DNA of 64,000 nucleotides from an uncultured virus (IMG/VR IMGVR_UViG_3300025870_000001). Taxonomy: Duplodnaviria; Heunggongvirae; Uroviricota; Caudoviricetes. Shown piece after piece: positions 176 to 64,000 of this stretch. Position 1 is the first letter of the stretch, and each line of letters opens with the position of its first letter. The notes beneath the pieces are model-generated. The model was not told the DNA's origin. It saw only the letters and a list, made by a program, of their open reading frames with translations, and did no database searches. The position numbers and the translations under genes are program-made. The stretch lies in IMG/VR virus record IMGVR_UViG_3300025870_000001; one strand, written 5' to 3'.

Positions 176-1177
176 GTTGTTTGCAAGATTATCTTCTGTT
201 GCTGATATAGTGAGAGTTCCGGCGACATCATCATATACCAATGAAATATTAGCACCAGCCTGAATTAAATTTGCAACCCTATCATCTACTCTTTCATCAG
301 TGAAATATAGATTAGTTCCTTCTGCAAGGTCTGTAGTAGTTTTATTGCTTAAATCTAGATTGGAACCTGCTTGCAGTGCAATTCTTGCATCTGTTCTTGC
401 GTCTGTATAATATAGATTTATCGAACCTTCTGGAATGGCGTCTGTTGATCTTGATGCTAAAAATGTATTTACAGCACCTTCAACAATATCATCAGAGTCG
501 AATTCTGTGAAGTTAATTGAAATATCTAAAAGATTACCAGCATCATCATAGTTTTTGGTTATACCGACACCATCAACAATTAAATCAGCAACTCTATCGT
601 CTACTCTTTCATCTGTGTAGTAAAGGTTATTAGAACCTTCTATAATTCCATCAGATGTACCAGAGATACCAAAATTACCAATATATCTAGCACCAACTAC
701 ATATATTTTATTTCCACTAATTCCACTAGGAAGATTATCTCCAATGAAGTTTAGAACGCCTGATTGATAATCGAAGAACCATTCATCATTATTTCCAGAA
801 CCCGCTGCGAATAATTGGGTGCCTGTAGACTGCGGATTGGCAGCTCCTGCGCTATCAATATAAACTTTTACTTGATATGTAGAGCCAAACTCTGGGGGGA
901 TCCAATCCGCAGCACTTGTCTTCCATGTTCTATTTGCAGACGCAGTTAAATCTGATGAGGTTTCAGTTGACGTTAATTCTACTTGAGATGTATTTGATGT
1001 AGGAATAGTTGCCGGAATGTCTCCAGCTTCCGCCCATAACTTATCACCCCTAATCAAAAGTGAACTAGGAATACTTTCGTTTGTAGCGTTTTTAATTGAG
1101 TTTATGTCAGTTTTAGTGACACCATATCCCAATTTTTTCCAAAGAAAGTCTAACTTTTGATTGTCGTTAATTGCCAT
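1..1177 (-). CDS. Tail fibre-like virion protein with TDDLAEGSxNLYYT repeats (5' part; runs off the left edge of the window)
   Basis: Not in the ORF track because it is truncated. Translated by hand from ATG at 1177 (GGGGAAG upstream): MAINDNQKLDFLWKKLGYGVTKTD...EWFFDYQSGVLNF..., then repeats such as TTDLAEGTNLYFTDERVDDRV and KDTGDLAEGSNLYYTDARVDANIA. No stop seen before position 1. Confidence 0.8.
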   Translation of the reverse strand, partial: MAINDNQKLDFLWKKLGYGVTKTDINSIKNATNESIPSSLLIRGDKLWAEAGDIPATIPTSNTSQVELTSTETSSDLTASANRTWKTSAADWIPPEFGSTYQVKVYIDSAGAANPQSTGTQLFAAGSGNNDEWFFDYQSGVLNFIGDNLPSGISGNKIYVVGARYIGNFGISGTSDGIIEGSNNLYYTDERVDDRVADLIVDGVGITKNYDDAGNLLDISINFTEFDSDDIVEGAVNTFLASRSTDAIPEGSINLYYTDARTDARIALQAGSNLDLSNKTTTDLAEGTNLYFTDERVDDRVANLIQAGANISLVYDDVAGTLTISATEDNLANNTTDDLAEGSTNLYYTEARVDANIASKDTGDLAEGSNLYYTDARVDANIATKDTGDLAE

Positions 1178-1185
1178 GACTTCCC

Positions 1186-4100
1186 CTATGACACACTAAG
1201 TGTTGTTACTGATTGCCCCGCATCTAATGCAATTCTAACAAGAGCCACATTACCAGTAGCATTTGTTAGGTTTTCAGTTCCAAGGGTCATGGTATAATTA
1301 CCACTTAGAGAAGTATTTGATATTATTCTATCCGAACCAGTTGAAGCACAACCATCACTTCCGTTTCCACCGTTTCCAGTATTTCCGCCGGGTACACCGG
1401 CTCCAGCATACTGAACTCCACAATTTAACCACCCATTTATAGAACTAGAATTGTCTATAGAAGTTCCTGGCGCAGCAATCCAAACGCCTGCGACACCAGA
1501 GGCACTTGTTATATTTATATTGAAGTTTGCTGTAACTGTTCGTCTAAACGCCAAGGTAAAATACTGCGTTCCTGTGTCTCCAGAACGATTTGGGCCTGTC
1601 GGTAAATATCCACTACTATAGTCATTTACATTGTGTTCTATTTTTCCAATTCTCAGTGTTGCTTCTTTAGTTCCAGCCATTCCCAAATCGCTAGATTCTG
1701 TATATGGGTTATTAGTATAGAAATTGGTAGAACCATTAAATGATGGATTGTTTGTTGTTTCTGAACTAAAATCAAATATACGAACACCATCATCATTAAA
1801 TCCCGAACCAAGAGAAGACGAAACATCTATAGAAGTTTCTGAAATTCCACTCTGTCCGGCAGTATGCACTTGTATTGCTGTGGTATTTTGTACCATACTT
1901 CCACTTCCATTGACATTATTTGTTGTTACTCCAAGTCGTTCAATAGTTCTTACACTAGAACCAGTGATATTAACATTTAGATTTCCCAATGCATATGGAG
2001 TACCGTTTCCAGTGTTTGCATTTGGTATTCCACCAGTCAGGAAAGTAGTTGATCCATCGATTGCAGAATAGTTGTAGTTTTGGGTGGAGATTGCAGAACT
2101 GCTCGTTCCTTCTTGATTTGTACCACTACTTATAGTCACAACGCTTGAGGTATTTCTATATGTTTGGCCAATAAAATTATCAACAGTAATGCCACTCCAA
2201 GTTAAAGAAGAACCTGAAGTATAATAAGGAATTCCTGAAATATATCTATAATTTCCCACATTTTCTGTAATTGTACCAGATGTTGTGGTGGGGGTAGATG
2301 TTAAATCATCCTTCACAAATTGCACTAGATTTGTATCTCCAGTGCTTGAATGTGAAAGTTTAAAGGAGTTTACACCAACACCAACGGCCGAGGCAGTTTT
2401 TTCAACATGGGCCTTAAAACCTTTGTATAAATCTGGATGATATATACTAGAAGAGAAAGAAGTGGAAGACCCAGAAGAATTTAGTAAATTGTAATCGCTT
2501 TCTGCGTCTATGACAAGACTAGTGTAGGTTCCTTGCTGTCCACCAGTTATTAAAGTAACAACCCCATCCACACTACCGTTGACAATCGCAGAAAGTGTTC
2601 CAGAATCTGCATTATATGCATATGTAGAGAATGTAGTTGTTTCTATTGTACCAGATGTTTTTGTAGTTCTGTCCACATCTTGCCCGACAGATAATGAAGT
2701 TCCGCCAGAATTGTCAGTAAATCCTGCAGCCAATCTTGGTGATGTTCCTGTATCTCCAGTAAAACTGATAGATTTTGAGCTCAGCCCAGCTGGCGCTGAT
2801 ATGTTTGGATCATATACTTTGAGCGTAGAAGTAACATCATCAGGAATTACAGCAGGGTTTGCTGTGCTGTGAGAATCTAGAGTTAATCTTAAAGTATCTC
2901 TGTCAGTTCCAGTATCTGTATTTGCACCCCATGTATGTTGAAGTCTTGTGCCCGATACCCCGCCTGCTGCATTATCAGATGCAATAGTGTCATTTGCTGT
3001 ACCATCACCCCAATTCATATTGTAAGTGACATCTGCCATGGTCGTATTTGTTGTTAAATTTTGAAGATATAGACTATCTCCTTCAATAACATACAAATTA
3101 TTTCCACTGAGGGTTGACCCGCCAGTTGCATTTCTATAGAGGGCAAAAGCGGCGTCAGGATCGGCTGTATATATGATTATATAATCTGTGTTAGTTGCAC
3201 TTGCCTCGCTTCCAGCGCCAGACCCTGAGTTGTTATATGCTCTTACGGTAACGGTGTATGGACTTCCACTATTACTTGTATATGTATGACTTGGAGTTGA
3301 ATCTGTTGTGCCGTTTGTGTTTGAACCATCACCCCAATCAATATCATATCTATTTGGAGAACCATCTACATTTAATGATAGTGTTACCGTAGTTCCTTCG
3401 CCGCCAGCTGTTGGAGAACCAGTAAAGGTAACACTTCTAACAAAAACGCCAATTCTAATATTATTTAATGCTTCATTTAATTCATCAATTGCATCTGCAG
3501 TTTTATCAGTAGATTCTAGAACAATTGCTCCATCACTTAAACTTCCATCAGTGGCAGTTCCAAGTTCTATATCAGACGCTTTTTTATTATTAAATGCATT
3601 ATCAAAATCTGATTGGCTAAATGTTACGCCTGGCACAAAATTAGTACCATCCCAAACTAGTGCATCTCCATTGTTGGGCGCAGCAGTTGTCGTATCCACA
3701 TCTGAAAGATCATCCACGACTGCAGCTGCAATTCTTGCATCTGCTCTTGCGTTTGTGTAATAAAGATTGGTAGATCCTTCTGCGATATCATCTGTAGTTC
3801 TATTTGCAAGGAAAGTATTTACTGTACCCTCTACAATATCATCTGAATCGAATTCGGCAAAATTGATTGCAATGTCTAAAAGATTTCCGGCATCATCATA
3901 ATTTTTGGTAATTCCAACACCATCTTGGATGAGAGCTGCAACTCTATCATCTACTCGCTCAGCAGTGAAAAATAAATTAGTGGAACCTTCATTGATAGTA
4001 TCGCTATCGCCCTGAGTGAAACTGAAAACGCCAGTAGCACTATCGTAGTTTATACTACCAGTGGCACTTACCGCATTTCTAACTCTCGTATCTGTATAGT

Positions 4101-4752
4101 ATAAATTAGTCGTACCTTCTGATATGTCATCAGTAGTTCTTGATGCTAAAAATGTATTAACAGAACCTTCAACAATATCATCGGTATCAAACTCGGCAAA
4201 ATTAATTGCAATATCTAAAAGATTTCCAGCATCATCATAGTTTTTAGTAATACCTACGCCATCTTGAATTAATGCGGCGACTCTATCATCTACTCTTTCA
4301 TTTGTATAATAAAGATTTGTTCCCTCTGGAATATCTGTAGTTGTTCTACTTGCAAGGAAAGTGTTAACTGCGCCTTCGACAATATCATCGGAATCAAATT
4401 CAGTAAAATCTATAGAAATTGTTAGGAGATTACCGGCATCGTCATATACTTTGTTAATACCAGTTCCATCAACAAATAAAGATGCAACTCTATCGTCCAC
4501 CCTCTCAGATGTAAAGTATAAATTAGAAGTGCCTTCGGGGATTTGATCGGTATCTGGTTTATTGAGAAGGTCGGCCCAACTACCAGATTCGGCAATGTCT
4601 GCAAGACCAAGATTTGTTCTTGCACCTTGTGCAGTTGTTGCACCTGTACCGCCGTGTAGCAGTCCTAAAGTTTCTCCTGTTAAAAATTCACTTAAACCAG
4701 TAGTGTCTCCAGAACCATCTACAACAACTCTTATTGGAATTACATTAGACAT
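1186..4752 (-). CDS. Tail fibre/virion protein: N-terminal EGxxNLYYT repeat shaft, PKD-like domains, S/T/G/N-rich beta-rich C-terminus
   Basis: 1188-aa ORF. Three ~68-aa repeats (NLYYTNERVDDRVAALIQDGVGITKNYDDAGNLL...). PKD signatures IDWGDGS...PSHTY and MNWGDGT...LQHTW. Confidence 0.75.
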   Translation of the reverse strand: MSNVIPIRVVVDGSGDTTGLSEFLTGETLGLLHGGTGATTAQGARTNLGLADIAESGSWADLLNKPDTDQIPEGTSNLYFTSERVDDRVASLFVDGTGINKVYDDAGNLLTISIDFTEFDSDDIVEGAVNTFLASRTTTDIPEGTNLYYTNERVDDRVAALIQDGVGITKNYDDAGNLLDIAINFAEFDTDDIVEGSVNTFLASRTTDDISEGTTNLYYTDTRVRNAVSATGSINYDSATGVFSFTQGDSDTINEGSTNLFFTAERVDDRVAALIQDGVGITKNYDDAGNLLDIAINFAEFDSDDIVEGTVNTFLANRTTDDIAEGSTNLYYTNARADARIAAAVVDDLSDVDTTTAAPNNGDALVWDGTNFVPGVTFSQSDFDNAFNNKKASDIELGTATDGSLSDGAIVLESTDKTADAIDELNEALNNIRIGVFVRSVTFTGSPTAGGEGTTVTLSLNVDGSPNRYDIDWGDGSNTNGTTDSTPSHTYTSNSGSPYTVTVRAYNNSGSGAGSEASATNTDYIIIYTADPDAAFALYRNATGGSTLSGNNLYVIEGDSLYLQNLTTNTTMADVTYNMNWGDGTANDTIASDNAAGGVSGTRLQHTWGANTDTGTDRDTLRLTLDSHSTANPAVIPDDVTSTLKVYDPNISAPAGLSSKSISFTGDTGTSPRLAAGFTDNSGGTSLSVGQDVDRTTKTSGTIETTTFSTYAYNADSGTLSAIVNGSVDGVVTLITGGQQGTYTSLVIDAESDYNLLNSSGSSTSFSSSIYHPDLYKGFKAHVEKTASAVGVGVNSFKLSHSSTGDTNLVQFVKDDLTSTPTTTSGTITENVGNYRYISGIPYYTSGSSLTWSGITVDNFIGQTYRNTSSVVTISSGTNQEGTSSSAISTQNYNYSAIDGSTTFLTGGIPNANTGNGTPYALGNLNVNITGSSVRTIERLGVTTNNVNGSGSMVQNTTAIQVHTAGQSGISETSIDVSSSLGSGFNDDGVRIFDFSSETTNNPSFNGSTNFYTNNPYTESSDLGMAGTKEATLRIGKIEHNVNDYSSGYLPTGPNRSGDTGTQYFTLAFRRTVTANFNINITSASGVAGVWIAAPGTSIDNSSSINGWLNCGVQYAGAGVPGGNTGNGGNGSDGCASTGSDRIISNTSLSGNYTMTLGTENLTNATGNVALVRIALDAGQSVTTLSVS
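3780..4540 (-). repeat. Three ~200-bp coding repeats, with a fourth copy at ~430-640 in the neighbouring gene
   Basis: e.g. cttgatgctaaaaatgtatt...accttcaacaatatcatc at both ~451 and ~4139; atctaaaagatt.ccagcatcatcata-like blocks at ~523, ~3873 and ~4213. Confidence 0.85.
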
Positions 4753-4770
4753 TAAAGAACCTCTTTTTAC

Positions 4771-4778
4771 TATTTAGG
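4771..4778 (-). promoter_or_regulatory. Candidate T4-type late promoter variant CCTAAATA
   Basis: tatttagg on + strand, intergenic, ~20 nt upstream of the ATG at 4752. Confidence 0.5.
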
Positions 4779-4819
4779 AAGACTTTAAGACCTCTTTTGA
4801 TGGTCTGTAAAGTCTTCCT
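4776..4819. other. Long intergenic inverted repeat (hairpin)
   Basis: aggaagacttta (4776-4787) pairs with taaagtcttcct (4808-4819); agacc/ggtct inner stem; no U-tract follows on the coding strand. Confidence 0.75.
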
Positions 4820-4832
4820 TAATAATTCACTA

Positions 4833-7800
4833 TTAAGAGGTAAGAAGAGATGTATCTACATCAGTTGTATTAATTCCGTTACCGCCTACCAATTGCAGAA
4901 TTCTCATTCCATTACCATTGGCTTGAGTACTCATCATACCTTTATATAATCTTCTTTTATCATTTGTTCCAGTAGAACTAAATCTATCACTTGAGATGAG
5001 AGTATCTTGCCCAACAGCTCCAGCTGCACAGAAAGATATAAGGTCTAATTCAGTTCCTGTGTATAAGAACCTCTGAGTTCCTAATCTATTTGGAAACTGA
5101 ATTACTAATTGTCCAGCATCATTCAAAGATAACTGTTCTAGTGGATTTAGAACTGCATGTGAATCGACTTCGTTAATACCAGCAAACACATGTCTATCCC
5201 ATGGTTTTAATACATCTTTTTCTCTCACAACAAATCTTCTAAATCTTCCTTGAATATCTAAATTCATCGCTCGCAGCTCTTCGTCTTTCAATTCATCAAT
5301 TTTAAATTCTGTTAAATAATTTCCAGAAATATCATAAACTCCTTGATATGCTAACGAAGAAGTTCTTTCAGTAGTTTTTGAATTGAAATATGGAGTAAAA
5401 TCTGAGAACAATAATGGAGATTCTGATGATTGATATAGACAATGAATTGGCTGTTGATCAGAAGAAAAATCTGGAGCTCCAGTTGTTGCATCTACATGTC
5501 TTTGAACAACAAAGAATGCATTATCATCTGACTGATTTGTTGATGCCTGATCTTTTAGATACATCGCCATACCATGATCTGCTATAGTTATAGTATATGC
5601 CATTGGATATTGACTTGCAATTGATGGCTTGGTTTTTCCAGTTCTTCTAAACCAACCTTTTTGCACTCTCAATTTACCATCATTGAATGGTGTGTCTGCA
5701 ACAAGTTCAGACGAAGTTCCAGACAAAAAGCTTTCCTCATATCTATATTCATTATCTAATAGTATACCTTCTGTGAGTGTTACATTTACTGGTATTGTTG
5801 GGTTTGTAATTGTTGCCGAGTTTGTAAACGCAGCTGCTAAACCAGTTTTTTTATCACCATCACTCTCATAATGTGCCTCTCCAACTCTTCCGGCACGAAC
5901 ATTAAATCCGCTTTTAAGCTGCGAATCTAATTCAGACCTATTGACAAATGGATTAATTAGATGAGTGACAGATTCTTGATAACCATTAAATTGAGTTCTG
6001 ATTCCGCCCAAAAATCCTGGCTCTCTTAAATTTGAGGGCTTGGTTCCATCGCGCCCTTCTACCTCAGCAATATTTCCATCTGAATTTAATTGAAATTCAG
6101 TTGCAACATGAACATTAAGATATTCAAAATTATTTGTCGCAATTGCCGCATCTCCGCTTGAACTCGAAAGTTGCAAATGCGTAGTGTTGATATAAGGAGA
6201 TGTTTCATTAACTTCTATACCCCTTGATACATTAAACCTAACTCTCCAAGGTTGATCTCCATTATTACCAGAAATTGGTAAAGTTCTGTCAGTTTCAAAT
6301 ACAAGAGGACCCATACTACGGTCAGTAACATATTCGAAAGATTCTATTTTGAGTTCTTTGCTAAATGTAGAAAACTCACTCCAGTGCGTCAATCCGCGAT
6401 TTGCCAAACCATGTGTCGTATTTGGATGTAATTGAGCGGCATCTTGATCAAAAGAAACTTGCGGGCCCAAAGGTCTATCATCAGCAGATACTACTTGTTG
6501 ATAATATGAAACAAAATATGATGTTGCTTTGTTTTCATCCAACCCAGTAAAAACTGACCAAGTTCCATTTACTGGATTTGCAAATGTGCCCAAATCTCTA
6601 GACAGAGGAAATTGTAAACGGACTGCCGAAACATCTGTTGTGACGCCAAGTTGAATTTGAGCCAGATCTAGATCCAATGGATCTGCAACTCCGGCATTGC
6701 TTGCATCGATGAGAACATCTTCTGTATAAAAATTAGAAACGTCAGCAACAAATGCTGCTCTTGCTGGAAGGTCTGCAACTAAGAAACCATTCAATCCATA
6801 TTCTGCAGAAGTTGTATCTCCGATATTGACAGTAGTTCCTGTAAATGCCGAAGAATCCGTGCCTAAGAACCCATGAGTTTTTGATGTATCAGAAATTTTC
6901 ATATACGCAGTCGAGTTTCTATTATATTTGAGTGAAATATAATTAGAACCAGCAACAACAGTCATATATGAGTTTATATACGAATTTCCTCTCAATGCAT
7001 TTGCAATATTTTCGGATAATTGCGCAGCATTTAAATTTCTAGGAGATGTATATGAAACTGTAACATTTTTTACTGCTGCAGTATTTGTCAATTTATCTGC
7101 AGCTGCTTCGTCAATAACTCCAGTTAAGGTGATTTCAAACGTATCGGCAATATTTGATCCGTCTAAACCACGAATTTGAACTTCATGTACATATCCATTT
7201 GTATATGTGCTTCCAGTTATTTCTGTAGAACCGTCTGTTACTGTAGATGATGCGGTTGCTTGGGGAACAGTAAATATTGTTGGAGTATTTGCAAAAGAGG
7301 TTGTTGGCCTTTCAGTTCTTGTAAAAGTACAAGTAAGATTGTGACCTATTTCCCTAGATTCAAATTCAAGTACTCCTACTCTATCTGGGTCTAAAACGAC
7401 TTCAAATAATCCGCCTTTAGGATCTGCAATATTAGTTTTCACCAATTCATCCAACACAGATCTCGTAAATCCTTCTACTGAAGAATCGTTACCAACTGTT
7501 ACCGCAACTTCATATGTAACATTAGGAGCAGGAGATATTGAAGAATGAACAAATGAAAATGTGTAAATGTCTCCAATTTGAAAATTATTTTCTGTGAACG
7601 CCTGATCGAACCCAATTAAGAGTTCTCCTTTGTATTTTGCTGGTTCAACAGTTCCTGATGGAAAAAAGAATTGATCTTTTAGATTTGAAATCCAAAAAGC
7701 ATGTTTTACAGCTCCATCTGGCTGGACATCTCTTTTATAATGTCTTAATTCTGCTTTTGTATTGACACCGCTTGCGGCTGCAGGCAGAAAAGATACTCCC

Positions 7801-8711: not shown

Positions 8712-8752
8712 TATTAATCAACTCCTATTAATTTATTAAAGCGTTTTTGTAT

Positions 8753-8760
8753 TATTTATA
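8753..8760 (-). promoter_or_regulatory. T4-type late promoter TATAAATA
   Basis: Exact consensus, intergenic, ~40 nt upstream of 8711, preceded by a T-tract. Confidence 0.8.
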
Positions 8761-8769
8761 AAAAAAAGA

Positions 8770-9702: not shown

Positions 9703-9721
9703 TTATTTCTCCTATTTTTTA

Positions 9722-9729: not shown

Positions 9730-9730
9730 T

Positions 9731-52293: not shown

Positions 52294-52295
52294 TT

Positions 52296-54794: not shown

Positions 54795-54802
54795 TTTTCT
54801 TC

Positions 54803-57079
54803 CTATGGATTTAAATCAATTTTCGGGGCTTTAATCGTAGTATTCCCACCAGATTCGGTATCTAGAGTTTTTCCTATTTTTGCGTCCACTGCACCAGTAA
54901 CATTAATATTGACATCTTTATCTACAACAATATTTAGGTTTCCTTTTACATAAATATTATTATCACCAAAAACAATTTCATAATTGTCTTTTACTATCTT
55001 AGTGACCATGCTGCCATCTGGATGCATTTCTTGGAAAGTTCCCGATTTATGCATTACATTAATTCTTTCAGCCCCAGGCGTATCATCAAACTCTTGGACA
55101 TGTCCAGACTCTGTAAATAATACTTTATTGTGGGGATATTTCGCCGCGTATGGATTTTCTGGTTCTTCGAATAGGTCAGTTGTGTCTCTAGTCTTTTCTT
55201 TTTGTTGTACTGAATATGGTTTATCCTCAGAGGCGACTCCAGACGCTCCAGAGCCCTTTGCGTTTGTGGTGTAACCATCTGTAGTGGTCGCAGCTGCTGC
55301 CTCTGCAGCATCCTTCTGTGCATTCACAGAAGACTCTTGAACACTATCGGGTGCAATTTCCCACAACACCGTACCATCTGTCAAATTAGAAGTTCTGGGG
55401 CCACCATCAGTTCCAGAAGTTCCTGCTTTTTTTGCAATATAAACTTTTTGTTCTATAAAAGTAGATTCTCCAGCACCTTTAAGAAGTCTATTGGCGTTTA
55501 CTTCATGTCCAGCCATTTGATTATTTACTTTATCTCTGACTGTTCCGGCAGCACCACCATTATTTGCATCAGTTCTACCATAATACTTTTCACCAACGCC
55601 GCCAGCATTGATTGCAGAATAAACTTCCAATCTTCCCATGCCAGATCTAACACCAGCACCTTTGAGATATTTTACAACAGCACCATTAGGCCCAAGTTGG
55701 GAATCTAATGCAGTCTGTTCTGTTGAAAAATTTGCTCCATATTGTCTGGCTTGCGGTTCTCCAAATTGTATCAGTCCTCTATGCTGCCCCCATTGAGTAG
55801 TCGGGCCTTTCTTGCGTGGATCGAAAGTACCACCTGTTTCATATGATATCACTGTTGCTAAATCTGTTGCAGATATACCCAGAGAGGCAGCAGAAGAAAT
55901 AATACCAGTTTTCAATGTGAAAGGCGGCCCTCCAACTGAGTTTTGTCCTTCTGGCAACTTTGGGCCCTTAACCAAGTCTCCAACTGCATATGATGTTTTT
56001 TCGTTCCAATCGCTAACATCTAATGTGGGTTTGGGTTGTGTTTTTGCGCCAGTTCCAGATGGAGTTGAATATGTAGAACCAGTAATTGGTGCTGAGTTAC
56101 CAACAATTGCACTTTGATTTCCACTTGCATCTGGAACAATACCATTACGCTTTAGACGAACTGTTCCACGCTCTCCACTTGCCATACTGAAATGCATCGT
56201 ATCTTTTTTAGAGCTCCAGTCACCACCCCAACCCAGACCATATTTCTTAGCGATTGCAGATGTGTTTGATGGCATGTCAGTGATAAACCTATCACTATAA
56301 GGATTTTCCGCTGGATTGATATCTATTGACGCACCAGATGCATGATAACTCCATTTACCATTTCCAGCTGCAGATTTTCTATAAACATAACCACCAATAC
56401 TGTAGATAGTATATCCATTAGGATGATTTGGAGAAGGTGTCTTTTCTAATTCATTAATGAATCCTTGAAAATTGTCCTTGAATACTGTAGCAACCCATGC
56501 ACTCTTACCATTCTTAGTTGTAACTTTAGATATACGTTTTCTGTTCTCTTCGTCTGAAGATGTTCCAGATTGATCTACATCTTCGCTGTAATGCTTCCCA
56601 TGTCCACCATCATCAGGTCCAGAAGAATCTACGGCAGTTCCAGAAGAACCAGTATCTGGAGGAACGCCTTGAGCAAGTCTGTTAACATCTGTCTCATTAG
56701 TTGTAGATGCGCCAGGAACTCTTTCTTCAGTAGACGGATATGAACCATCCTCTGCTCCTGTAGATGTTTCATTTGGTCGTCCATAGACTGTTCCCCAAAT
56801 GATAGGGTCTTGGCCGGATTGTCCATCTCTAAAGAACCCCATAACCCATGCGCCAGGCAATGCACCAGTTGGAGATTGTCCTACACCAGCAATTGCTGCA
56901 GATGTGATAGGCATTATCGGGGAGGCCCAAGGAAGTTTTGTTGTTGGTAGTAATGACCTGTCTTCATTATGAAATCCAAAGATTCTAACTCTAACTCTAC
57001 CTAATGCTTCGGGGTCGTTTACATCTTCGACAATTCCTTGCCACCAAACTAAACCTTCTTTACCACTGAAAAAATCCAT
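54803..57079 (-). CDS. gp5: Baseplate hub / tail spike gp5 with M15-family peptidase and lysozyme-like domains
   Basis: OB-fold WWQGIVEDVNDPEALGRVRVRIFGFH...WVMGFFRDGQSGQDPIIWG; C-terminal YPHNKVLFTESGHVQEFDDTPGAERINVMHKSGT beta-helix ending IDLNP. Confidence 0.93.
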   Translation of the reverse strand: MDFFSGKEGLVWWQGIVEDVNDPEALGRVRVRIFGFHNEDRSLLPTTKLPWASPIMPITSAAIAGVGQSPTGALPGAWVMGFFRDGQSGQDPIIWGTVYGRPNETSTGAEDGSYPSTEERVPGASTTNETDVNRLAQGVPPDTGSSGTAVDSSGPDDGGHGKHYSEDVDQSGTSSDEENRKRISKVTTKNGKSAWVATVFKDNFQGFINELEKTPSPNHPNGYTIYSIGGYVYRKSAAGNGKWSYHASGASIDINPAENPYSDRFITDMPSNTSAIAKKYGLGWGGDWSSKKDTMHFSMASGERGTVRLKRNGIVPDASGNQSAIVGNSAPITGSTYSTPSGTGAKTQPKPTLDVSDWNEKTSYAVGDLVKGPKLPEGQNSVGGPPFTLKTGIISSAASLGISATDLATVISYETGGTFDPRKKGPTTQWGQHRGLIQFGEPQARQYGANFSTEQTALDSQLGPNGAVVKYLKGAGVRSGMGRLEVYSAINAGGVGEKYYGRTDANNGGAAGTVRDKVNNQMAGHEVNANRLLKGAGESTFIEQKVYIAKKAGTSGTDGGPRTSNLTDGTVLWEIAPDSVQESSVNAQKDAAEAAAATTTDGYTTNAKGSGASGVASEDKPYSVQQKEKTRDTTDLFEEPENPYAAKYPHNKVLFTESGHVQEFDDTPGAERINVMHKSGTFQEMHPDGSMVTKIVKDNYEIVFGDNNIYVKGNLNIVVDKDVNINVTGAVDAKIGKTLDTESGGNTTIKAPKIDLNP

Positions 57080-58380
57080 TATCTACCGCCTCCACCAAAG
57101 CCAACCGGCCCAACCAGCTGGGGAACTGGAGAAGGAAGAGTTTCGTTGAATGAATCTTTTACTAATTCTAAATCCATAATATATCTCCCACCCTGTATTC
57201 TATGTCTCAATGCGAATATTATATATTTCCCACTATAATATTCATCCTTTTTATCTGGATCAGTTGAACTAAACAAAGGAACATTTAATTCAAGACAATC
57301 GCCCGTAACCAAGTCACTATCTCCATACACTGTAATTGTACATTTAATATTTTCCATCAATTGTTTATAAAACAGTCTACTTAAAAATATCTTCTCTTGG
57401 TTGTATAGCGGCTTGCCAGCAGTCAATTCGACTTCTGGAAGGAGATAATAGGATTCTGGGCGATACTGTCTCCCCTGTCCGCTTACATCTTGGATAGGCC
57501 CATCATTCATATACTGATAGTCTGTAGAGTTATCCCAATATGAATGAGTGAAGGTTTTTGTATTTCTTGTAACCATATCTACCGTAGTGAGATTTCCAAC
57601 ATACATACCCTTTGCGATATTATCTAAAACAGAAAAGTTTGAGTTGAAAGAATATGTTATTACTTTTTTGTTTTCTGAATTTGGATCTAAAAAGGCATCA
57701 GGAGCTCCAGATCCAGTATTTTTTAAATCTCCCAAAAAGAACTCATTTCTCTTTTCACCCTGTGCCATAGATTCTATAGATTTTAATTTATAACCTTTTG
57801 TTGTTTCGAAAAATACATAGGACGAACTCTTATATGATTCTGAATATGCTCTATCACATAGAAAATTTATTGCTCGCATAGGAGTCATATTAGGAATTAT
57901 AATTCCAGTTTCTTGATCATATCTATCGTCGCTCGGTTCTACATCAAATGTCTTAGATGAATTAATTCTTTCAAAACATTTTTGGGCTATTTCAGTAGCA
58001 CTTCCTTCAAAGTGTTCAGATATTCTAGTTTCAAAATTAGAGATCATGTCTTCAGTAACCAATTCCAAATTATAACTTTGTGCTAAATTTTCATTAGATA
58101 CCGATGATATTTTATGTATTACCATATTAAGAGAAATTTGAGTATCACCGCCGCGCGTTTTAAATTGGATCTCAACCTTTTCCTGTCCTATAACTGGCAG
58201 GTAGTTCATCAAACCAACATCATCTAATATAGTAATTCTTGCTGTAATACTAGAGGAAAATAAATCTTCATATATTTGAATAGAAGAAGCAAGCGTAACT
58301 ACACTTTGTTTAAATCCATTATGAGAAGTTATTTCTAATTTAGATAACTCATAATCTCCTAGTTTAGTAAAATCAGACAT
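57079..58380 (-). CDS. Baseplate hub protein (gp27-like, marine T4-like type)
   Basis: IQIYEDLFSSSITARITILD...LPVIGQEKV; YVFFETTKGYKLKSIESM; ITVYGDSDLVTGD...YSGKYIIFALRH; lies between gp53 and gp5. Confidence 0.75.
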   Translation of the reverse strand: MSDFTKLGDYELSKLEITSHNGFKQSVVTLASSIQIYEDLFSSSITARITILDDVGLMNYLPVIGQEKVEIQFKTRGGDTQISLNMVIHKISSVSNENLAQSYNLELVTEDMISNFETRISEHFEGSATEIAQKCFERINSSKTFDVEPSDDRYDQETGIIIPNMTPMRAINFLCDRAYSESYKSSSYVFFETTKGYKLKSIESMAQGEKRNEFFLGDLKNTGSGAPDAFLDPNSENKKVITYSFNSNFSVLDNIAKGMYVGNLTTVDMVTRNTKTFTHSYWDNSTDYQYMNDGPIQDVSGQGRQYRPESYYLLPEVELTAGKPLYNQEKIFLSRLFYKQLMENIKCTITVYGDSDLVTGDCLELNVPLFSSTDPDKKDEYYSGKYIIFALRHRIQGGRYIMDLELVKDSFNETLPSPVPQLVGPVGFGGGGR

Positions 58381-59129
58381 TATTTAGAAGCCTCTTCCCA
58401 ATCTTTCAAAAAATCATTAATCAAATCTGTCCGTAATAGTTTTATTCTTCTATTCTTCTCATTATTATCAAAAGCATTATCCCAAACCGAATATAATTTA
58501 TACTGTTTCTTTTTTTGTATATCTAGATTTGCATAAGAACTATTTGAAATCTTATGAGTATCGTCAACAGACATATACCATATTGGAAGTTTTTTTGAAA
58601 TATCCAATGCTATTATCTTATCGTCCGATGTAAGTTTATCCCAAGAAGTCAAAAAATTATTCTGGTTCTCTTGTATTTCTCTACCATTCCAAATATAAAA
58701 ATCTCCATCAACTCTAGCAAGTTGGCCAACAGTTCTTGCACTTCTTTGTTGCAGAGAATCCTTATCCAATTCATTATTTTCTTTTTGAGGAATTGCATTT
58801 TTTCTTTTTAAATCAAAATATGGAAGAATTTCTGGATTATAAGTTTTCTTTATTGAATTGATAAGCTCTGTTTCTGTTCTTGGCCATTCCGAATACCTAT
58901 CCTTTATATCATTTACCAACAAAATAATCCAAGACAATTTAGAATCTTTGTAGTAATTATATGCAATTTTTTCTGGAGTTTCGGAGTCGTGAACTGTATG
59001 ATCGAAAGTAGAAAGAGGATTGTTTCTATATTCTTGCATTACATAAGAATATTTAAAAATATTCTTTACCTCTCTAGATTGTCCATTAAGGTTTATGTCA
59101 TATTTTATATTGTTTAATCTATCGAACAT
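58380..59129 (-). CDS. gp53: Baseplate wedge protein gp53 (LysM-like)
   Basis: ETPEKIAYNYYKDSKLSWIILLVNDIKDRYSEWP; NEKNRRIKLL. Confidence 0.9.
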   Translation of the reverse strand: MFDRLNNIKYDINLNGQSREVKNIFKYSYVMQEYRNNPLSTFDHTVHDSETPEKIAYNYYKDSKLSWIILLVNDIKDRYSEWPRTETELINSIKKTYNPEILPYFDLKRKNAIPQKENNELDKDSLQQRSARTVGQLARVDGDFYIWNGREIQENQNNFLTSWDKLTSDDKIIALDISKKLPIWYMSVDDTHKISNSSYANLDIQKKKQYKLYSVWDNAFDNNEKNRRIKLLRTDLINDFLKDWEEASK

Positions 59130-59130
59130 A

Positions 59131-59919
59131 TTAATATCCTGCCTTTACATCACTTCTGGTTATCAATTGTACTTCTTGGAAAGTCATACTAAGATTTACA
59201 ACTGATGGAGCTCCACTAGATGCAAACATTCCAAACGAACCATTTCCGCCAAATTCAACATCAAAGTCAGTTAATACACATGGTTTTATTTTATTTAAAT
59301 GTTTTGATTCTGTACCATCTATCATATATTTTAGTTCAAAGTAATTTGGGGGAGTAAAAAAGTTACCAGCGTTTCCAGATAATTCTGGAGACATATTCAT
59401 TCTAAAAAATTCTATTATGTCGGTAAGTACATCCGATTCTTTTTCTGACTTGGGCATTAAATTATATGCATAAGAAAAACTTCTATATTCTGGGCCCTGA
59501 TACAAAGTATGTCTATTTGCAGCTGCTGTCGATCTACCTAATGCTTGCGCAGCAAGTGTTGCAGATTCTCCGCCCGCGCCAAGACTAGCAGTTAGTGCAT
59601 CACCGCCACCACCAATAATTCCTTTTATTGTTTTTAATACACCAGACATTTCTGGTGGATTATCGGCATTTCCCTGTTCAAAAATATTTGCGATCCCTGA
59701 TAATGCAGTACCATCGTTAGTATTTTGAAAATTTTGTTTTGTTGTATTTTTAATATTTTCTGGAAGGAACAACTGAACAGTACCGACCACTTCCTGTGAA
59801 GGTTGGTCATCTCTGGATTTAACTTTTGTATATCCAGCAACTCGCCCCGAATATGCAGTAAACAATAAATGATCTCCGGCGTTTGGGCCAGATTCAATTG
59901 GATAGGTGTAACCTGCCAT
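59131..59919 (-). CDS. gp48: Baseplate tail-tube cap gp48
   Basis: VQLFLPENI; YQGPEYRSFSYAYNLMPKSEKES; KIKPCVLTDFDVEF; LSMTFQEVQLITR. AGGAG RBS. Confidence 0.88.
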   Translation of the reverse strand: MAGYTYPIESGPNAGDHLLFTAYSGRVAGYTKVKSRDDQPSQEVVGTVQLFLPENIKNTTKQNFQNTNDGTALSGIANIFEQGNADNPPEMSGVLKTIKGIIGGGGDALTASLGAGGESATLAAQALGRSTAAANRHTLYQGPEYRSFSYAYNLMPKSEKESDVLTDIIEFFRMNMSPELSGNAGNFFTPPNYFELKYMIDGTESKHLNKIKPCVLTDFDVEFGGNGSFGMFASSGAPSVVNLSMTFQEVQLITRSDVKAGY

Positions 59920-59955: not shown

Positions 59956-59973
59956 AAGGTTTTTTTGATTGAA

Positions 59974-60414
59974 ATGAGAAGATTTACATATAGAGGAAAA
60001 TACAACCCAAAACACCCACAAAAATATGTAGGCAATGTTAAAAATATTGTTTATCGATCCATGTGGGAAAGAAGGTTTATGAAATATTGTGACGATAATC
60101 CAGAAGTCCTTGTTTGGTCAAGTGAAGAGCTCGTAATACCCTATTTATCTCCAATCGATAGAAAGATGCACAGATATTATCCAGATTTCTTGATAAAGGT
60201 AAAAAGAAATGATTCGACACAGACAGTTGTAGTAGAAGTGAAACCAAAAAGAGAAACCAAACCACCAAAAAAGAAACAAAAAATTACACCTAGATATTTA
60301 AGTGAAATGAAAACATGGTCAGTAAATGAAGCAAAATGGAAAGCTGCAAATGAATTTTGCAAAGACAGAAGATGGGAATTTAAAATTATGACAGAAGATC
60401 AGTTAGGAAGATAA
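59974..60414 (+). CDS. gp4: Head completion protein gp4 (TnsA-like nuclease fold)
   Basis: YRGKYNPKHPQKYVG...IVYRSMWERRFMKYCD...WSSEE...HRYYPDF...VEVKP...VNEAKWKAA. ATG at 59974 preferred over TTG at 59965. Confidence 0.93.
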   Translation: MRRFTYRGKYNPKHPQKYVGNVKNIVYRSMWERRFMKYCDDNPEVLVWSSEELVIPYLSPIDRKMHRYYPDFLIKVKRNDSTQTVVVEVKPKRETKPPKKKQKITPRYLSEMKTWSVNEAKWKAANEFCKDRRWEFKIMTEDQLGR

Positions 60415-60415
60415 T

Positions 60416-60988
60416 ATGGCAAACTTCGCACCACTCTTAGCAAGACTTGCACAAAGAGGAATACAACCAAATACCAATGCAGCCAGAGAATGGTTCAGAA
60501 AAAAGGTAAGAGAAACTAGAATTAGTAGAAATGCACTTTTATCTGATTCCGATAGAAAGGCTGGAGGACTACAAGTTGGACATATGTATTGTTACAACTA
60601 CGATCCAAAATTTGCGAAAAAACTACCATACTATGATGAGTTTCCTCTCATATTTGTGATAGAAAGAACCTCTAAAGGATTTGTAGGAATTAATTTGCAT
60701 TATGTGTCTCCAAGAAACAGAGTTGCAATTATGAACGCATTAGATAAGACAGTCCGTGGCAGAAACTATGATGAGAAAACAAAATTGGCAATTTCTTATA
60801 ATATCCTAAAAGGTTTGTCTAAATATAACATGATAAAACCCTGTGTAAAAAAATATCTATATGGACATGTTAAAGGTAATTTTGTTAAGATAGATGCAAA
60901 CGAATGGGATATTGCATTATTTTTACCAGTGCAAAAATTTAGAAAAGCAGCTGCATCCAAAGTTTGGTCAGATTCTGCAAGAAGATAG
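60416..60988 (+). CDS. gp2: DNA end protector protein gp2
   Basis: GHMYCYNYDPK...LPYYDEFPL...GINLHY...PCVKKYL..HV...EWDIALFLPVQKF. Confidence 0.92.
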   Translation: MANFAPLLARLAQRGIQPNTNAAREWFRKKVRETRISRNALLSDSDRKAGGLQVGHMYCYNYDPKFAKKLPYYDEFPLIFVIERTSKGFVGINLHYVSPRNRVAIMNALDKTVRGRNYDEKTKLAISYNILKGLSKYNMIKPCVKKYLYGHVKGNFVKIDANEWDIALFLPVQKFRKAAASKVWSDSARR

Positions 60989-60995
60989 GATTAAA

Positions 60996-61556
60996 ATGGG
61001 AAGTATAACTGACTTTGTTTCCGAAATTAATAGAACTGGATTTTCCAGAGCAAATCGTTATGAGATGGTGTTTGTAGTACCAACCGCAGTAAACGGATTG
61101 TCGCCAGGCCTAAGCAGATCTCTAACATATAGAATAGCATCTGTCAACCTACCAAGTAAATCAATCGCAACTACAGAAACCAAAGTATATGGCCCAGTAA
61201 GACAGGCACCATATTCTACGACATATGACCAATTAACTTTTAGTATGTATCTCAGTAAAGATTTGCGCGAGCGAAAATCTATGGAAAACTGGATGCATTA
61301 TATTGTAGATTATGACAATCATAAAATAAGATATTTGAATGAATATAAGGGATCGATATATTTGGCAGTTTTTGACGAACAGGAAAATCAAACAGCATCC
61401 TATCATTTCATGGAGGCATTTCCACTATCAATTGGAGAAGTTGCGTTAGCATATGCAAATGAAGATGTGGCGCAATGTCAGATAACAATGTCATATAGAA
61501 AATATATAGAAACCGACTCAAAACAGTGGCAGGCTGCTAATGGAAGTTATTATTAA
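60996..61556 (+). CDS. gp54: Tail-tube initiator gp54-like (gp19 fold)
   Basis: GFSRANRYEM; SVNLPSKSIAT; YGPVRQAPY; EAFPLSIGEVALAY; ITMSYR. Start placed at ATG 60996 (AGGA upstream, just after the gp2 stop). Confidence 0.75.
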   Translation: MGSITDFVSEINRTGFSRANRYEMVFVVPTAVNGLSPGLSRSLTYRIASVNLPSKSIATTETKVYGPVRQAPYSTTYDQLTFSMYLSKDLRERKSMENWMHYIVDYDNHKIRYLNEYKGSIYLAVFDEQENQTASYHFMEAFPLSIGEVALAYANEDVAQCQITMSYRKYIETDSKQWQAANGSYY

Positions 61557-61558
61557 GA

Positions 61559-61566
61559 GATAAATA
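61559..61566 (+). promoter_or_regulatory. Candidate late promoter GATAAATA
   Basis: nATAAATA variant, intergenic, upstream of gp26 (GAGGA RBS). Confidence 0.6.
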
Positions 61567-61604
61567 AACAGAAGTATTATAATATTAATTTATGAGGAAT
61601 AATT

Positions 61605-62330
61605 ATGTTACCAAGAATTGATACACCCACGTATGAATTGACATTACCATCAACTAAGAAGAAACTAAAATTTAGGCCATTCTTAGTAAAAGAAGAAAAA
61701 ATTCTTCTGATGGCACAAGAAGGAGATACATCAGAAGAAAAAATTGATGCTGTTAAACAGATTATAAGAAATTGTATTTTACAAGATATCGATGTAGATA
61801 AATTATCAACATTTGATATCGAATATATTTTCATTCAATTAAGATCAAAATCTGTTGGAAATATTATACAGCTAAACTATAAAAGAGAAAATTGTGCAGA
61901 TAAGGAAGATGGGGCAGGGGATTGTCAAATACCTTTTCTTTTAAACTTAGACGATACTAAGATTGAAAATATGACACAAGATCACTCAAATGAAATAGTT
62001 TTAACAGATGATATTTCAATTTTAATGAAATATCCAGATTTTTCTTTGATGAATCAGTTGGTAGATGCAGAATCATACGATGATTTGGTTGAATTGATTG
62101 CTAATTGTATAGAGTTTATAAAAGACTCTGACGAAATGCATAATGTATCTGACTACACTAGTCAGGATGTGAAAGATTTTATTGAGAATTTGACACAGAA
62201 TCAATTTGAGAAAATTAATGAATTTTTTGAAAACATGCCAGAAACAACTTGTGACGTAAATATCACCTGTTCAAAATGTGGCTTTAAAAAAGAAATGAAA
62301 GTGAGGGGTATTTCCGATTTTTTTTCCTAA
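61605..62330 (+). CDS. gp26: Baseplate hub assembly protein gp26-like
   Basis: LPRIDTPTYELTLPS...FRPFLVKEEKILLMA...FDIEYIFIQLRSKSVG...MKYP...FFENMP...CSKC...GISDFF. Confidence 0.9.
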   Translation: MLPRIDTPTYELTLPSTKKKLKFRPFLVKEEKILLMAQEGDTSEEKIDAVKQIIRNCILQDIDVDKLSTFDIEYIFIQLRSKSVGNIIQLNYKRENCADKEDGAGDCQIPFLLNLDDTKIENMTQDHSNEIVLTDDISILMKYPDFSLMNQLVDAESYDDLVELIANCIEFIKDSDEMHNVSDYTSQDVKDFIENLTQNQFEKINEFFENMPETTCDVNITCSKCGFKKEMKVRGISDFFS

Positions 62331-62512
62331 GCTTAAATCATGAATCCCTGGCGTCTTTGTATAGGAATAATTTTGCGTTAATGCACCACCATAAATATAG
62401 TTTAACTGAGTTGAATGATATGATTCCTTGGGAGAGAGAAGTATATCTTAATTTATTGATTGGTTATTTAGAAGAAGAAAAAAGAAGAAAAGAACAACTT
62501 AAAAATCAATAA
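62318..62512 (+). CDS. gp51: gp51-like baseplate hub assembly reading frame, probably entered by -1 frameshift from gp26
   Basis: Not in the ORF track. The -1 frame reads FFFLSLNHESLASLYRNNFALMHHHKYSLTELNDMIPWEREVYLNLLIGYLEEEKRRKEQLKNQ*, matching the short gp51-like protein of marine T4-likes. First in-frame ATG (62381) lies inside the conserved region. Confidence 0.8.
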   Translation, partial: FFFLSLNHESLASLYRNNFALMHHHKYSLTELNDMIPWEREVYLNLLIGYLEEEKRRKEQLKNQ

Positions 62513-62523
62513 GGAACTATAAC

Positions 62524-62847
62524 ATGACCAAAACACTCGAAACCGACAGCGTATTAAATAATGCAGACGCGAATGGAGATAATGTTATAAGCAATGATGA
62601 ATTGGCGAGACACGAAAGAATGTTGAAAATTGAAAATGAAGATAAAAAAGAAGATCAAATCAGATCCATGGCATGGTTTGCATTGGCAGGCATGTTGTTA
62701 TATCCGTTTGCGGTGGTGATTGCAGATTTAGTTGAATTAGATAATGCAGCAAAAATATTAGGTGACATGGCACCAACATATTTTGTATCAGTCGCAGCAT
62801 TAGTTGCAGCATTCTTCGGCGCACAAGCATATACTAAAGGCAAATAA
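62524..62847 (+). CDS. Small membrane protein with an EF-hand-like loop and two transmembrane helices (holin-like topology)
   Basis: DANGDNVISNDE loop; hydrophobic MAWFALAGMLLYPFAVVIA and YFVSVAALVAAFFGA; basic C-terminus; AAGGA RBS. Confidence 0.65.
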   Translation: MTKTLETDSVLNNADANGDNVISNDELARHERMLKIENEDKKEDQIRSMAWFALAGMLLYPFAVVIADLVELDNAAKILGDMAPTYFVSVAALVAAFFGAQAYTKGK

Positions 62848-64000
62848 ATGGCAGATCTTGCACCAGTAACAGAAAAACTGATAAAACAAAATCAAGAAGA
62901 ACTAGCAAAGTCTGTAAAGGATGCAAGTACGTCCTTACAGTCTGCTGGTGCAAGACAAGCTCTTACAGAAATTGCATCTATTTTTGAAGAACAATCTGGA
63001 GTGTCAGTAAAAGAATTTAAACAGAGCAGAGATAAAATCACTGCACTGTCATCATCTTTGGATGAAATGGATACTGTATCAAATACTGAAAGAAAAATAC
63101 TTGAAGATATTCTTAAAAATTCCCAGACAAGTATAAAAGAAAACGCAAACTTCAAAAAAAGCATTGGGGAATTAACATCTAATGCAGTTAAGTCTGGACT
63201 AGATGGTGTGGGCGGAATGTTAACTGGCGCTCTTGCACAGAGTCCTATTCTGGCTCTTGGTGCAAGTTTTCTTGGAGATCGTGTAAAACAATTTAGAGAA
63301 AGACGCGCAGCCGCCAAAGAAGAAGAAAATCAGAGAATAGAGAGAATAAAACAAGAAACCGAAATCGAGAAAAAAGAATTTGAGATTTTAAGAACCCAAA
63401 TATCTAATGAAGATGCTATTTCTCGTTCTAATATGGATCAGCAAAAGATTCAAGAAGAAGCAAGATCCAGAGGTGTATCTGAACAAACTGTAATAGATGA
63501 AGTAAAAGATAATATTATCAGGACAGCTAAAAATGAAAAACTTTCAAATGATGCGAAAAAAGCAGAATTAGATGCAATAGAAGATCTCAAAAAGAAATAT
63601 GAAATTGAAACTGAAGTATCTAAACCAGAAAGTCCTACAGAAAACTTTAATGATAATATAAGTACACCAGAAACAACTGAAACGGATACAAATGCACTAT
63701 TAGATATTGATGAAAAGTTGGGGCCCAATCAAGCATACTTAGAAGAAATTAGAGACCTCTTGCAATGGATGAAAGATAATGATGGAAATCCTACTTCTCT
63801 AGAAATAGAAGAAGCAAGAGAATTGAGAAGAGAAAGAAAAAAGACACTTGAGATTGAAAAGGCACAACTCAAAGCAATGCAGGGAATGGGTGCCGGTGGT
63901 TTAGGTATATCATCTGGTAAGGCCGGTGGCAATGAAGGAAGTTTATTAGATACGGTTGGTGATATTGGTGGGGGAGTTGCCGCGTTGGGTGGTCTTGCTG
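62848..64000 (+). CDS. Probable tape-measure / gp29-like protein (5' part; runs off the right edge)
   Basis: ATG directly after the previous stop; MADLAPVTEKLIKQNQEELAK...; long helical E/K-rich segments alternate with G/A/L-rich segments (GGMLTGALAQSPILALGASFLG; GGGVAALGGLA). No stop seen to the window end. Confidence 0.6.
   Translation, partial: MADLAPVTEKLIKQNQEELAKSVKDASTSLQSAGARQALTEIASIFEEQSGVSVKEFKQSRDKITALSSSLDEMDTVSNTERKILEDILKNSQTSIKENANFKKSIGELTSNAVKSGLDGVGGMLTGALAQSPILALGASFLGDRVKQFRERRAAAKEEENQRIERIKQETEIEKKEFEILRTQISNEDAISRSNMDQQKIQEEARSRGVSEQTVIDEVKDNIIRTAKNEKLSNDAKKAELDAIEDLKKKYEIETEVSKPESPTENFNDNISTPETTETDTNALLDIDEKLGPNQAYLEEIRDLLQWMKDNDGNPTSLEIEEARELRRERKKTLEIEKAQLKAMQGMGAGGLGISSGKAGGNEGSLLDTVGDIGGGVAALGGLA

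Follow-up and report, generated by a model that had tools for sequence, protein, structure and literature searches.

We analysed a 64,000-base stretch of DNA from an uncultured virus (IMG/VR record IMGVR_UViG_3300025870_000001; hereafter the window), in which the sequence CCNGG persists only where it is preceded by G or followed by C. Based on this footprint, on the genes of related phages and on the published biochemistry of their homologues, we propose, with a probability of roughly 0.7, that the phage lineage combines avoidance of restriction sites with a hypermodification of cytosine directed at GCC. The Cmo system that would carry out this modification is already known, CmoX hypermodification having been described in December 2025 (PMC12783734); new would be the flank-conditional footprint, the G-C-C preference that it implies and the evidence of protection in natural populations.

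Sites were counted exactly on the plus strand of the window, a site being called flanked when it has a G on its 5' side or a C on its 3' side, and the counts were compared with a null of 500 synonymous-codon shuffles within each of 26 open reading frames (ORFs) that cover 98% of the window. The original prediction, made from the letters alone, held that CCNGG almost always carries one of the two flanks, and the exact count agrees: all 42 sites (36 CCWGG and 6 CCSGG) are flanked. The shuffles gave 40.5 ± 4.6 unflanked CCNGG sites (minimum 26) against none observed, and 19.7 ± 3.7 flanked sites (maximum 31) against the 42. For CCGG the estimate of roughly 35 sites was too low, there being 50, while the flank pattern itself stood: 48 are flanked (shuffle 24.1, maximum 35), and the 2 that are not (shuffle 32.9 ± 5.0, minimum 16) are exactly the two exceptions that had been named. 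Codon-preserving shuffles thus do not reproduce the bias. GGNCC occurs 68 times, only 8 of these as GGWCC, which cannot overlap GCC or GGC and is depleted five-fold (shuffle 43.0 ± 4.2, minimum 30). GGCC is enriched two-fold (113 sites; shuffle 57.3 ± 6.3, maximum 78), the control CCWWGG lies at expectation (27 observed, 27.0 in the shuffles), and the most over-represented 6-mer in the window is GCCAGG/CCTGGC. A type III-style orientation bias was ruled out, as single-flank sites occur in both orientations (17 and 9). Other palindromes are also scarce in the window: GGTACC has no site where about 8 are expected under a Markov model, and GATC, ACGT, GTAC and TTAA fall below the codon-shuffle null. 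These depletions point to a broad restriction repertoire of the hosts.

Forty of the 42 CCNGG sites lie in frame 0 and correspond to Pro-Gly codon pairs, which indicates that optional sites have been purged and only those forced by the protein are left; 39 of the 40 fall in the twenty minus-strand structural ORFs of the window. Codon choice around these pairs is strongly skewed. The Gly codon after Pro is GGC in 32 of the 40 pairs, compared with 18% of all Gly codons, and the codon before the pair ends in G in 23 of them, compared with 11% overall; no pair has neither. The junctions cited in the original prediction (6016, 28910, 23094, 39267, 43428 and 49991) are as it described them, and an example of each kind of rescue is given in Table 1. 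Gly-Pro pairs had been characterized as mostly GGC or GGG with few GGWCC sites, which also matches, since the 46 pairs comprise 21 GGC, 18 GGG, 4 GGT and 3 GGA (39 of 46 with GGC or GGG).

The flank rule is a property of a clade. The closest complete relative of the window is G033, a syntenic IMG/VR contig of 203,815 bp (CheckV completeness 100%) with about 73–82% nucleotide identity across the structural module and neighbouring proteins 84–92% identical, while a second IMG/VR contig, G001 (64,663 bp), is 99.4% identical over window positions 20226–64000 and continues 20.9 kb beyond. Two marine Kyanoviridae, Melnitz EXVC044M (MZ577097) and HTVC008M (NC_020484), have a T4-like module in common with the window. 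Across five related sequence sets (about 695 kb, including Melnitz), 441 of 442 CCNGG and 294 of 306 CCGG sites are flanked, and 8 of the 12 unflanked CCGG sites are GCCCGG/CCGGGC, in which GCC overlaps the site by one base. Melnitz, a Methylophilales phage cultured on OM43 strain H5P1 (141.5 kb), has 72 of 72 CCNGG and 15 of 15 CCGG sites flanked and neither GGWCC nor GGTACC; the corresponding values are 87/87 and 47/47 in contig G003, 87/87 and 40/40 in contig G002, and 143/144 and 135/145 in G033. In a 491-kb pool of the window, the G001 extension, Melnitz, G003 and G002, we scanned all palindromes of 4–6 bp with each of the four flank bases, and CCWGG, CCNGG and CCGG with the G-/-C flank came out far on top; flanked CCNGG numbers 298 versus 138 expected, and unflanked CCNGG 0 versus 282. 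Among 80 IMG/VR loci anchored on a gene of the Mom family that lies near the window, 572 of 578 CCNGG and 226 of 232 CCGG sites are flanked.

In loci anchored on the baseplate hub protein gp26, the rule persists to protein identities of about 50% and is mostly lost at lower ones. HTVC008M does not follow it for CCNGG (147 sites versus 142 expected, 30 of the 147 flanked versus 30.8 expected), and it has neither a C5 enzyme nor a Mom gene. Its CCGG sites are flanked in 41 of 51 cases, but 30 of the 51 are a single word, ACCGGC/GCCGGT (L089, L105, L106); unflanked CCGG is depleted (10 versus 31.6) and GGCC is three-fold down in this phage, though it lacks both enzymes. Some sub-lineages of the clade keep the CCNGG rule while CCGG and GGWCC occur at expectation. 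Such separability of CCNGG, CCGG and GGWCC would be expected if the modification were constant and the host enzymes varied. The rule is found in phages of 30–42% G+C, which probably infect different hosts. Restriction enzymes directed at CCNGG seem to be present in the hosts of the clade, joined in most sub-lineages by enzymes against CCGG, GGWCC and GGTACC.

The search for modification genes that had been suggested along with the original prediction succeeded in G033 and failed in the window itself, where a Pfam scan of the 64 kb found no DNA-modification gene among the ORFs. In G033, genes resembling CmoY, CmoX and CmoA are adjacent (Table 1). In the CmoX-like protein the SPPC motif is conserved, as is the GRMVPP arginine that binds carboxy-S-adenosylmethionine (Cx-SAM; R350 in SpCmoX). 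The CmoA-like protein matches the CmoA family TIGR00740 with 119 bits (E 2e-34), short of the 193 bits that NCBIfam sets as its equivalog cut-off. CmoX of Synechococcus phage S-B43, whose structure is PDB entry 8YF3, is reported to transfer a carboxymethyl group from Cx-SAM, made by CmoA, onto C5 of cytosine in the motif GC, giving 5-carboxymethylcytosine, and CmoY to ligate glycine onto the carboxymethylated product (Yang et al., Nat Commun 2025, PMC12783734). The same report gives about 75% of GC sequences in S-B43 DNA as modified, describes a block of HhaI by carboxymethylation in vitro, and counts 5,615 CmoX homologues, whose sequence specificities its authors regard as still to be determined (PMC12783734). 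A G placed 5' of CC(N)GG creates a G-C step at the outer C of the site, which is the CmoX-type target; this, and the presence of all three genes side by side, is the likeness between G033 and S-B43. There are also differences. The gene order is Y-X-A in G033 and A-Y-X in S-B43; the clade footprint indicates that protection is full at G-C-C alone and slight at GCA, GCG and GCT, whereas the paper reports GC; and the CmoY-like ligase of G033 is divergent. Ligases are also diverse within the clade, those of the L273–L279 group being only about 45% identical to the G033 ligase.

Two large ORFs without a Pfam or NCBIfam family, of 791 and 501 amino acids (aa), flank the G033 cluster. A homologue of the first occurs in HTVC008M, where it is annotated as a peptidase, and a homologue of the second adjoins the methyltransferase gene of Melnitz.

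The rule was compared with gene content in 25 CmoX-anchored loci with 4 or more CCNGG sites and no less than 1.5 kb of sequence to each side of CmoX. It is present in 13 of the 15 loci with an adjacent CmoA and in none of the 10 in which a CmoX-like gene stands without CmoA and CmoY. Recognition regions are near-identical between CmoX loci with and without CmoA, so the difference lies in cofactor supply through CmoA and not in the CmoX enzyme; residues of CmoX that separate rule-obeying from unbiased phages were looked for and none was found. A large marine clade of about 32–34% G+C (L293–L295, L297, L298, L301–L326) encodes CmoX-like proteins that have the arginine motif, with CmoA and CmoY both missing from the vicinity. 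These phages have no CCNGG rule, are depleted in GGCC (44 versus 83) and in unflanked GCGC (7 versus 23.6), and have flanked GCGC at expectation (26 versus 27.3).

Metagenomic runs offer a further tie between the window and the enzymes. Four runs were chosen solely because they hold the window (shares of window words 1.00, 0.92, 0.92 and 0.88), and all four also contain long contigs about 98–98.5% identical to the CmoX/CmoA locus L278, with the same variant letters in each; L278:7617-9186 is substituted by other sequence in the four runs. The L278 enzymes are 94% (CmoX) and 83% (CmoA) identical to those of G033. This tie is co-occurrence, not linkage.

The flank rule alone cannot separate GC from GCC as the protected motif, because the sites themselves begin with CC. 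Palindromes in G033 are more informative and favour the three-base motif of the original prediction. All six palindromes that contain GCC or GGC have observed-to-expected ratios of 1.1–3.1 (GGCC 1.69, GGGCCC 3.1), while 6 of 18 palindromes with GC only lie below 0.5 (GTGCAC 0 versus 13, TGCGCA 1 versus 11, CTGCAG 17 versus 83). In HTVC008M, which is without CmoX, the ratio for GGCC is 0.32. GCGC behaves in the same sense in the 491-kb pool, flanked GGCGC/GCGCC numbering 244 versus 187 expected and the remaining sites being depleted (83 versus 141). In purged palindromes that start with C and a non-C base, a G flank helps little (ratio 0.29 flanked, 0.21 unflanked); all 9 surviving sites of CACGTG, CGATCG, CTCGAG and CCTAGG are flanked. 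Blanket protection of GpC was ruled out, AGCT, GTGCAC, TGCGCA and CTGCAG being purged. We read these counts as suggesting full protection at G-C-C and a weak one at other GC steps. The recognition region of the CmoX-like protein of G033 has a 6-residue insertion relative to SpCmoX, which may be a candidate cause of a GCC preference.

Taken together, these results favour the following mechanism. Host enzymes would cut CCNGG and, in most sub-lineages, CCGG, GGWCC and GGTACC, and the phage has removed every site that synonymous codons allow it to remove. Pro-Gly forces CCNGG, and such sites are kept only with a G at the end of the preceding codon or with GGC as the Gly codon, either of which places the outer C of the site in G-C-C. 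The lineage encodes a C5 enzyme of the CmoX family together with a carboxy-SAM synthase (CmoA) and an amide ligase resembling CmoY. The CmoX of the clade would act fully on G-C-C, a bulky substituent at C5, present within the site on a single strand, would suffice to block cleavage, and selection would have tuned the flanking codons so that each unavoidable site carries a protected base. We infer that the genome of the window itself possesses the Cmo cluster, that GCC is preferred and that protection results. The likely agent is C5 hypermodification of cytosine of the CmoX type, or else a related enzyme acting on C5; 7-deazaguanine and Mom are unlikely. More tentatively, at slightly less than even odds, the CmoX of the clade would have an effective specificity for G-C-C and not GC, a modified C on one strand would block cutters of CCNGG and CCGG, coding sequence would be tuned genome-wide, and Melnitz would reach the same motif with a different C5 enzyme. 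Were this so, sequence data by themselves would reveal both the target motif and the in vivo protective role of a hypermodification that was discovered only recently. The core of the original prediction, namely modification of GCC/GGC with codon choice placing forced sites upon it, was supported by all of the sequence-based tests.

Several results weigh against this proposal. The published CmoX motif is GC, not GCC, and CCTAGG is almost gone (1 versus 16.3) though a G flank should rescue it. The association with CmoA is largely one phylogenetic split and amounts to one or two independent contrasts, and loci with both CmoX and CmoA exist that do not show the rule (L292 and L347 in the 25-locus set, L281 and L346 outside its filters). 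No CmoX, CmoA or CmoY occurs in the window and the 99.4%-identical G001, 85 kb in all, and what ties the window genome to CmoX and CmoA is evidence from relatives and joint occurrence in metagenomes, in which related phages are found together as well. Melnitz obeys the rule at 72 of 72 sites with a C5-methyltransferase that is only 39% identical to the G033 enzyme and in which GLMVAP replaces the arginine motif, and CmoA was not found in its genome; the footprint thus does not depend on carboxymethyl chemistry. Flank rescue was not seen in S-B43 (100 of 214 kb counted, S-B43 80001–180000, L359 and L360), and the rule was not seen in S-CRM01 (50 of 179 kb counted).

As to S-B43 itself, CCGG (2 versus 80), GGCC (28 versus 66) and AGCT (92 versus 249) are depleted though the last two contain GC, CCSGG is absent and CCWGG is unconstrained (164 versus 154). 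The lack of a C5 methyltransferase in G002 and G003 was considered as counter-evidence and is void, because both contigs are without the whole replication module that holds the gene; G004 is also without a PF00145 match, but is only 36% complete.

The behaviour of S-B43, in which GC modification is proven and no flank rescue is seen, is what would be expected if no modification were involved and the host enzymes required a base other than G before the site and other than C after it, the effective site being HCCNGGD or HCCGGD. Consistent with such plain avoidance of a degenerate 7-bp site, flanked sites in the cleanest sub-lineages are at expectation (24 versus 20.5; 22 versus 19.7) while unflanked sites vanish. 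CCNGG and CCGG, however, vary independently among sub-lineages, and each would need the same unusual H...D flank specificity; we know of no restriction enzyme with it. Flank-specific restriction also leaves unexplained the rescue of GCGC by the same flank, the GCC palindromes at or above expectation as opposed to the depleted GGCC of HTVC008M, and the tracking of the rule with CmoA beside CmoX. We consider this explanation unlikely.

Melnitz, with its full rule, divergent methyltransferase and no CmoA found, leads to a further alternative, a different modifier at GCC/GGC that is encoded by the host or by an unannotated phage ORF. Most small ORFs are without a family, and the host of Melnitz also encodes a type II methylase according to the Melnitz paper. 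The rule, however, spans phages of 30–42% G+C with probably different hosts, and recognisable DNA-modifying genes are limited to the C5 enzyme (in G033 and Melnitz; G001, G002 and G003 lack that part of the genome) and Mom (in all five). Such a modifier appears quite unlikely.

The footprint is symmetric, so that a modified C in GCC cannot be told from a modified G in GGC. The original prediction had named as an analogy phage CAjan, which reportedly carries 7-deazaguanine at a GGC motif; on this reading a DpdA-type transglycosylase would replace G in GGC. This route found no support. No TGT/DpdA, QueC, QueD, QueE or FolE family appears in the Pfam matches of 136 G033, 32 G001-extension and 94 G003 ORFs, the G033 scan taking in 136 of the 152 non-nested ORFs that measure 70 aa or more within bases 1–141,000 (10 large structural and 6 border-crossing ORFs were left out), and the Melnitz annotation holds no 7-deazaguanine gene. 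G033 has a complete cytosine-modifying cluster instead. Replacement of G thus seems very improbable. It is the other suggestion of the original prediction, a cytosine enzyme of the GpC type, that fits.

A Mom-family enzyme was also weighed as the modifier, in which case its target would be not adenine but the exocyclic amine of a C or G within GCC/GGC. A Mom-family gene lies about 11 kb past the end of the window in G001 (Table 1), and homologues occur in G002, G003, G033 and Melnitz and not in HTVC008M. All 80 Mom-anchored loci, with Mom homologues at least 68% identical, obey the rule, and no DNA-modifying family other than Mom could be recognised among 94 G003 ORFs without a counterpart in HTVC008M. 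The gene is, however, precisely absent between its two neighbours in five loci (L194, L196, L201, L206, L212) with gene order otherwise conserved, and in four of these (L194, L196, L201, L206) CCNGG is still flanked at 24 of 25 sites, with 1 unflanked versus 28.5 expected. Mom was dropped as the cause of the footprint because this syntenic Mom-less sub-lineage keeps the CCNGG rule. Mom of phage Mu is reported to produce N6-carbamoylmethyladenine at SAS (PMC13219725, PMC7261163); GCCGG holds no adenine, and a Mom of the SAS type would cover every CCWGG and GGWCC, yet those are purged. Phages with Mom homologues that are 42% identical avoid CCNGG, CCGG and GGCC outright (0, 0 and 3 sites in 50 kb of an Edwardsiella phage), and no flank rescue was found in the Mom-bearing Edwardsiella ET-ABTNL-9 (50 of 90 kb), Psychrobacter Y8A or Mu. 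As the source of the footprint, Mom is hardly credible: the homologue in the window lineage is not needed for the CCNGG rule, and the adenine target of Mu Mom is absent from the rescued contexts. Melnitz combines a Mom gene 75% identical to that of the window lineage, annotated "DUF465" in its record, and the full rule with a C5 methyltransferase that is not of the CmoX type. A search for Mom in 28 fragmentary contigs gave 3 matches, the absences being uninformative at a completeness of 7–61%.

Mom in the window lineage is probably a second, independent anti-restriction modification. Constraint on CCGG and GGWCC is lacking in the sub-lineage without Mom; loci that carry Mom, by contrast, all follow the CCGG rule and contain few GGWCC sites. 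In the 491-kb pool, TCGA is at expectation as GTCGA/TCGAC (391 versus 386) and depleted otherwise (603 versus 799), an effect that could be a footprint of Mom, the A of TCGAC being in the SAS context G-A-C. ACGT shows no SAS-type flank rescue in the window.

The footprint resembles classical restriction-site avoidance in that GATC, ACGT, GTAC, GGWCC, GGTACC, CCGG and CCNGG are depleted relative to a codon-preserving null. It differs in being conditional on a single flanking base, in an all-or-none manner, and in that protein-forced sites are kept and moved to a protected context without loss of the dipeptide. Chlorella viruses encode M.CviPI, a GpC-specific C5 methyltransferase. Enzymes of that type are similar in being virus-encoded C5 enzymes with a very short G-C target that protects many overlapping sites; blanket GpC protection does not fit the clade, however, and the donor of the CmoX family is carboxy-SAM, not SAM.

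On the proposed reading, the footprint would be evidence from natural selection that a CmoX-family or related C5 modification protects phage DNA in the ocean, and it leads to a testable prediction of the protected motif, G-C-C. Restriction sites that survive in only one flanking context could provide a cheap means of deducing modification motifs from genomes. The rise of GGC from 18% to 80% of Gly codons after Pro illustrates how far anti-restriction selection would reach into coding sequence. The phage is a common one: 82–100% of the sampled words of a 10-kb window stretch were found in each of 20 marine or seawater runs, drawn from 19 studies. Melnitz on OM43 offers a cultured relative that obeys the rule.

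With 36.2% G+C and 98% of its length coding, the window is the module for baseplate and tail fibres of a T4-like myovirus that is widespread in the sea. Its ORFs match the Pfam families Gp5_OB, Gp6-like, Phage-Gp8, GPW_gp25, Phage_gp53, T4_tail_cap and DUF4815, and its gp26-like protein is about 40% identical to gp26 of Pelagibacter phage HTVC008M, of T4-like cyanophages and of Melnitz. A megablast search with 7.7 kb of the window against cultured phages gave no match. The features with their coordinates are collected in Table 1.

Table 1. Coordinates of sites, genes and gene groups in the window and, where a locus is named, in its relatives
Feature	Coordinates	Strand	Remarks
Unflanked CCGG	11042..11045		Within GCCCGG; GCC overlaps the first C; the containing CCCGG is G-flanked
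Unflanked CCGG, TTCCGGTG	14164..14167		Sole CCGG of the window without any GCC/GGC overlap
Overlapping CCNGG pair, CCTGGCCAGG	44500..44509	-	One out-of-frame CCNGG (frame 2; 44500/44505); both flanked
Sole non-coding CCNGG (CCTGG then C)	62347..62351	+	Flanked, follows the rule
Pro-Gly site rescued by the preceding codon, GAG CCA GGA	6016..6020	-	G of GAG gives GCC
Pro-Gly site rescued by the Gly codon, ATT CCA GGC	49991..49995	-	3' C from GGC
Eight surviving GGWCC	Starts 6307 (6307..6311, -), 8575, 14920, 22670, 28490, 33074, 44862, 56616		7 of 8 in-frame Gly-Pro
20 structural ORFs, T4-like (gp5, gp6, gp8, gp25, gp53, gp48-like; giant fibre/baseplate proteins up to 2313 aa)	2..59919	-	Pfam
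gp4-like head completion, gp2-like DNA end protector, gp19-like, gp26-like baseplate hub, start of an 817-aa protein	59965..63999	+	PF12322 T4_baseplate E 2e-61; phrog_218; phrog_429
G033 CmoY-like, Asn_synthase PF00733	L349:1653-2615		41% identical to SpCmoY over 280 aa
G033 CmoX-like, C5-methyltransferase fold	L349:2612-3808		PF00145 E 5e-58; PDB 8YF3 E 9e-141; 58% identical to SpCmoX
G033 CmoA-like, class I methyltransferase	L349:3762-4499		61% identical to SpCmoA over 229 aa
G033 ORF, 791 aa	L349:4572-6947		
G033 ORF, 501 aa	L349:269-1774		
Mom-family protein, 268 aa	L004:14815-15621 (G001 54815-55621)	-	PF25680 E 2e-47; phrog_1384; 31% identical to Mu Mom
G001 extension cargo ORFs	L004:5467-5874, L004:6069-6311, L004:17228-17512, L005:2107-2586		

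Window positions 21162–21331 and G001 positions 937–1064 give BLAST matches of 86 bases offset by 42 bases, so that near-identical sequences align with a shift. This suggests a difference in tandem-repeat copy number between the two, inside the ORF of 2311 aa at 14880–21815. The G001 extension carries cargo that is unusual for a T4-like phage, namely a cytochrome c, a small DUF1127 protein, a 94-aa SET-domain protein and a fragment of a Na+/Pi-cotransporter; the DUF1127 and SET genes are found again in G003, G033 and Melnitz.

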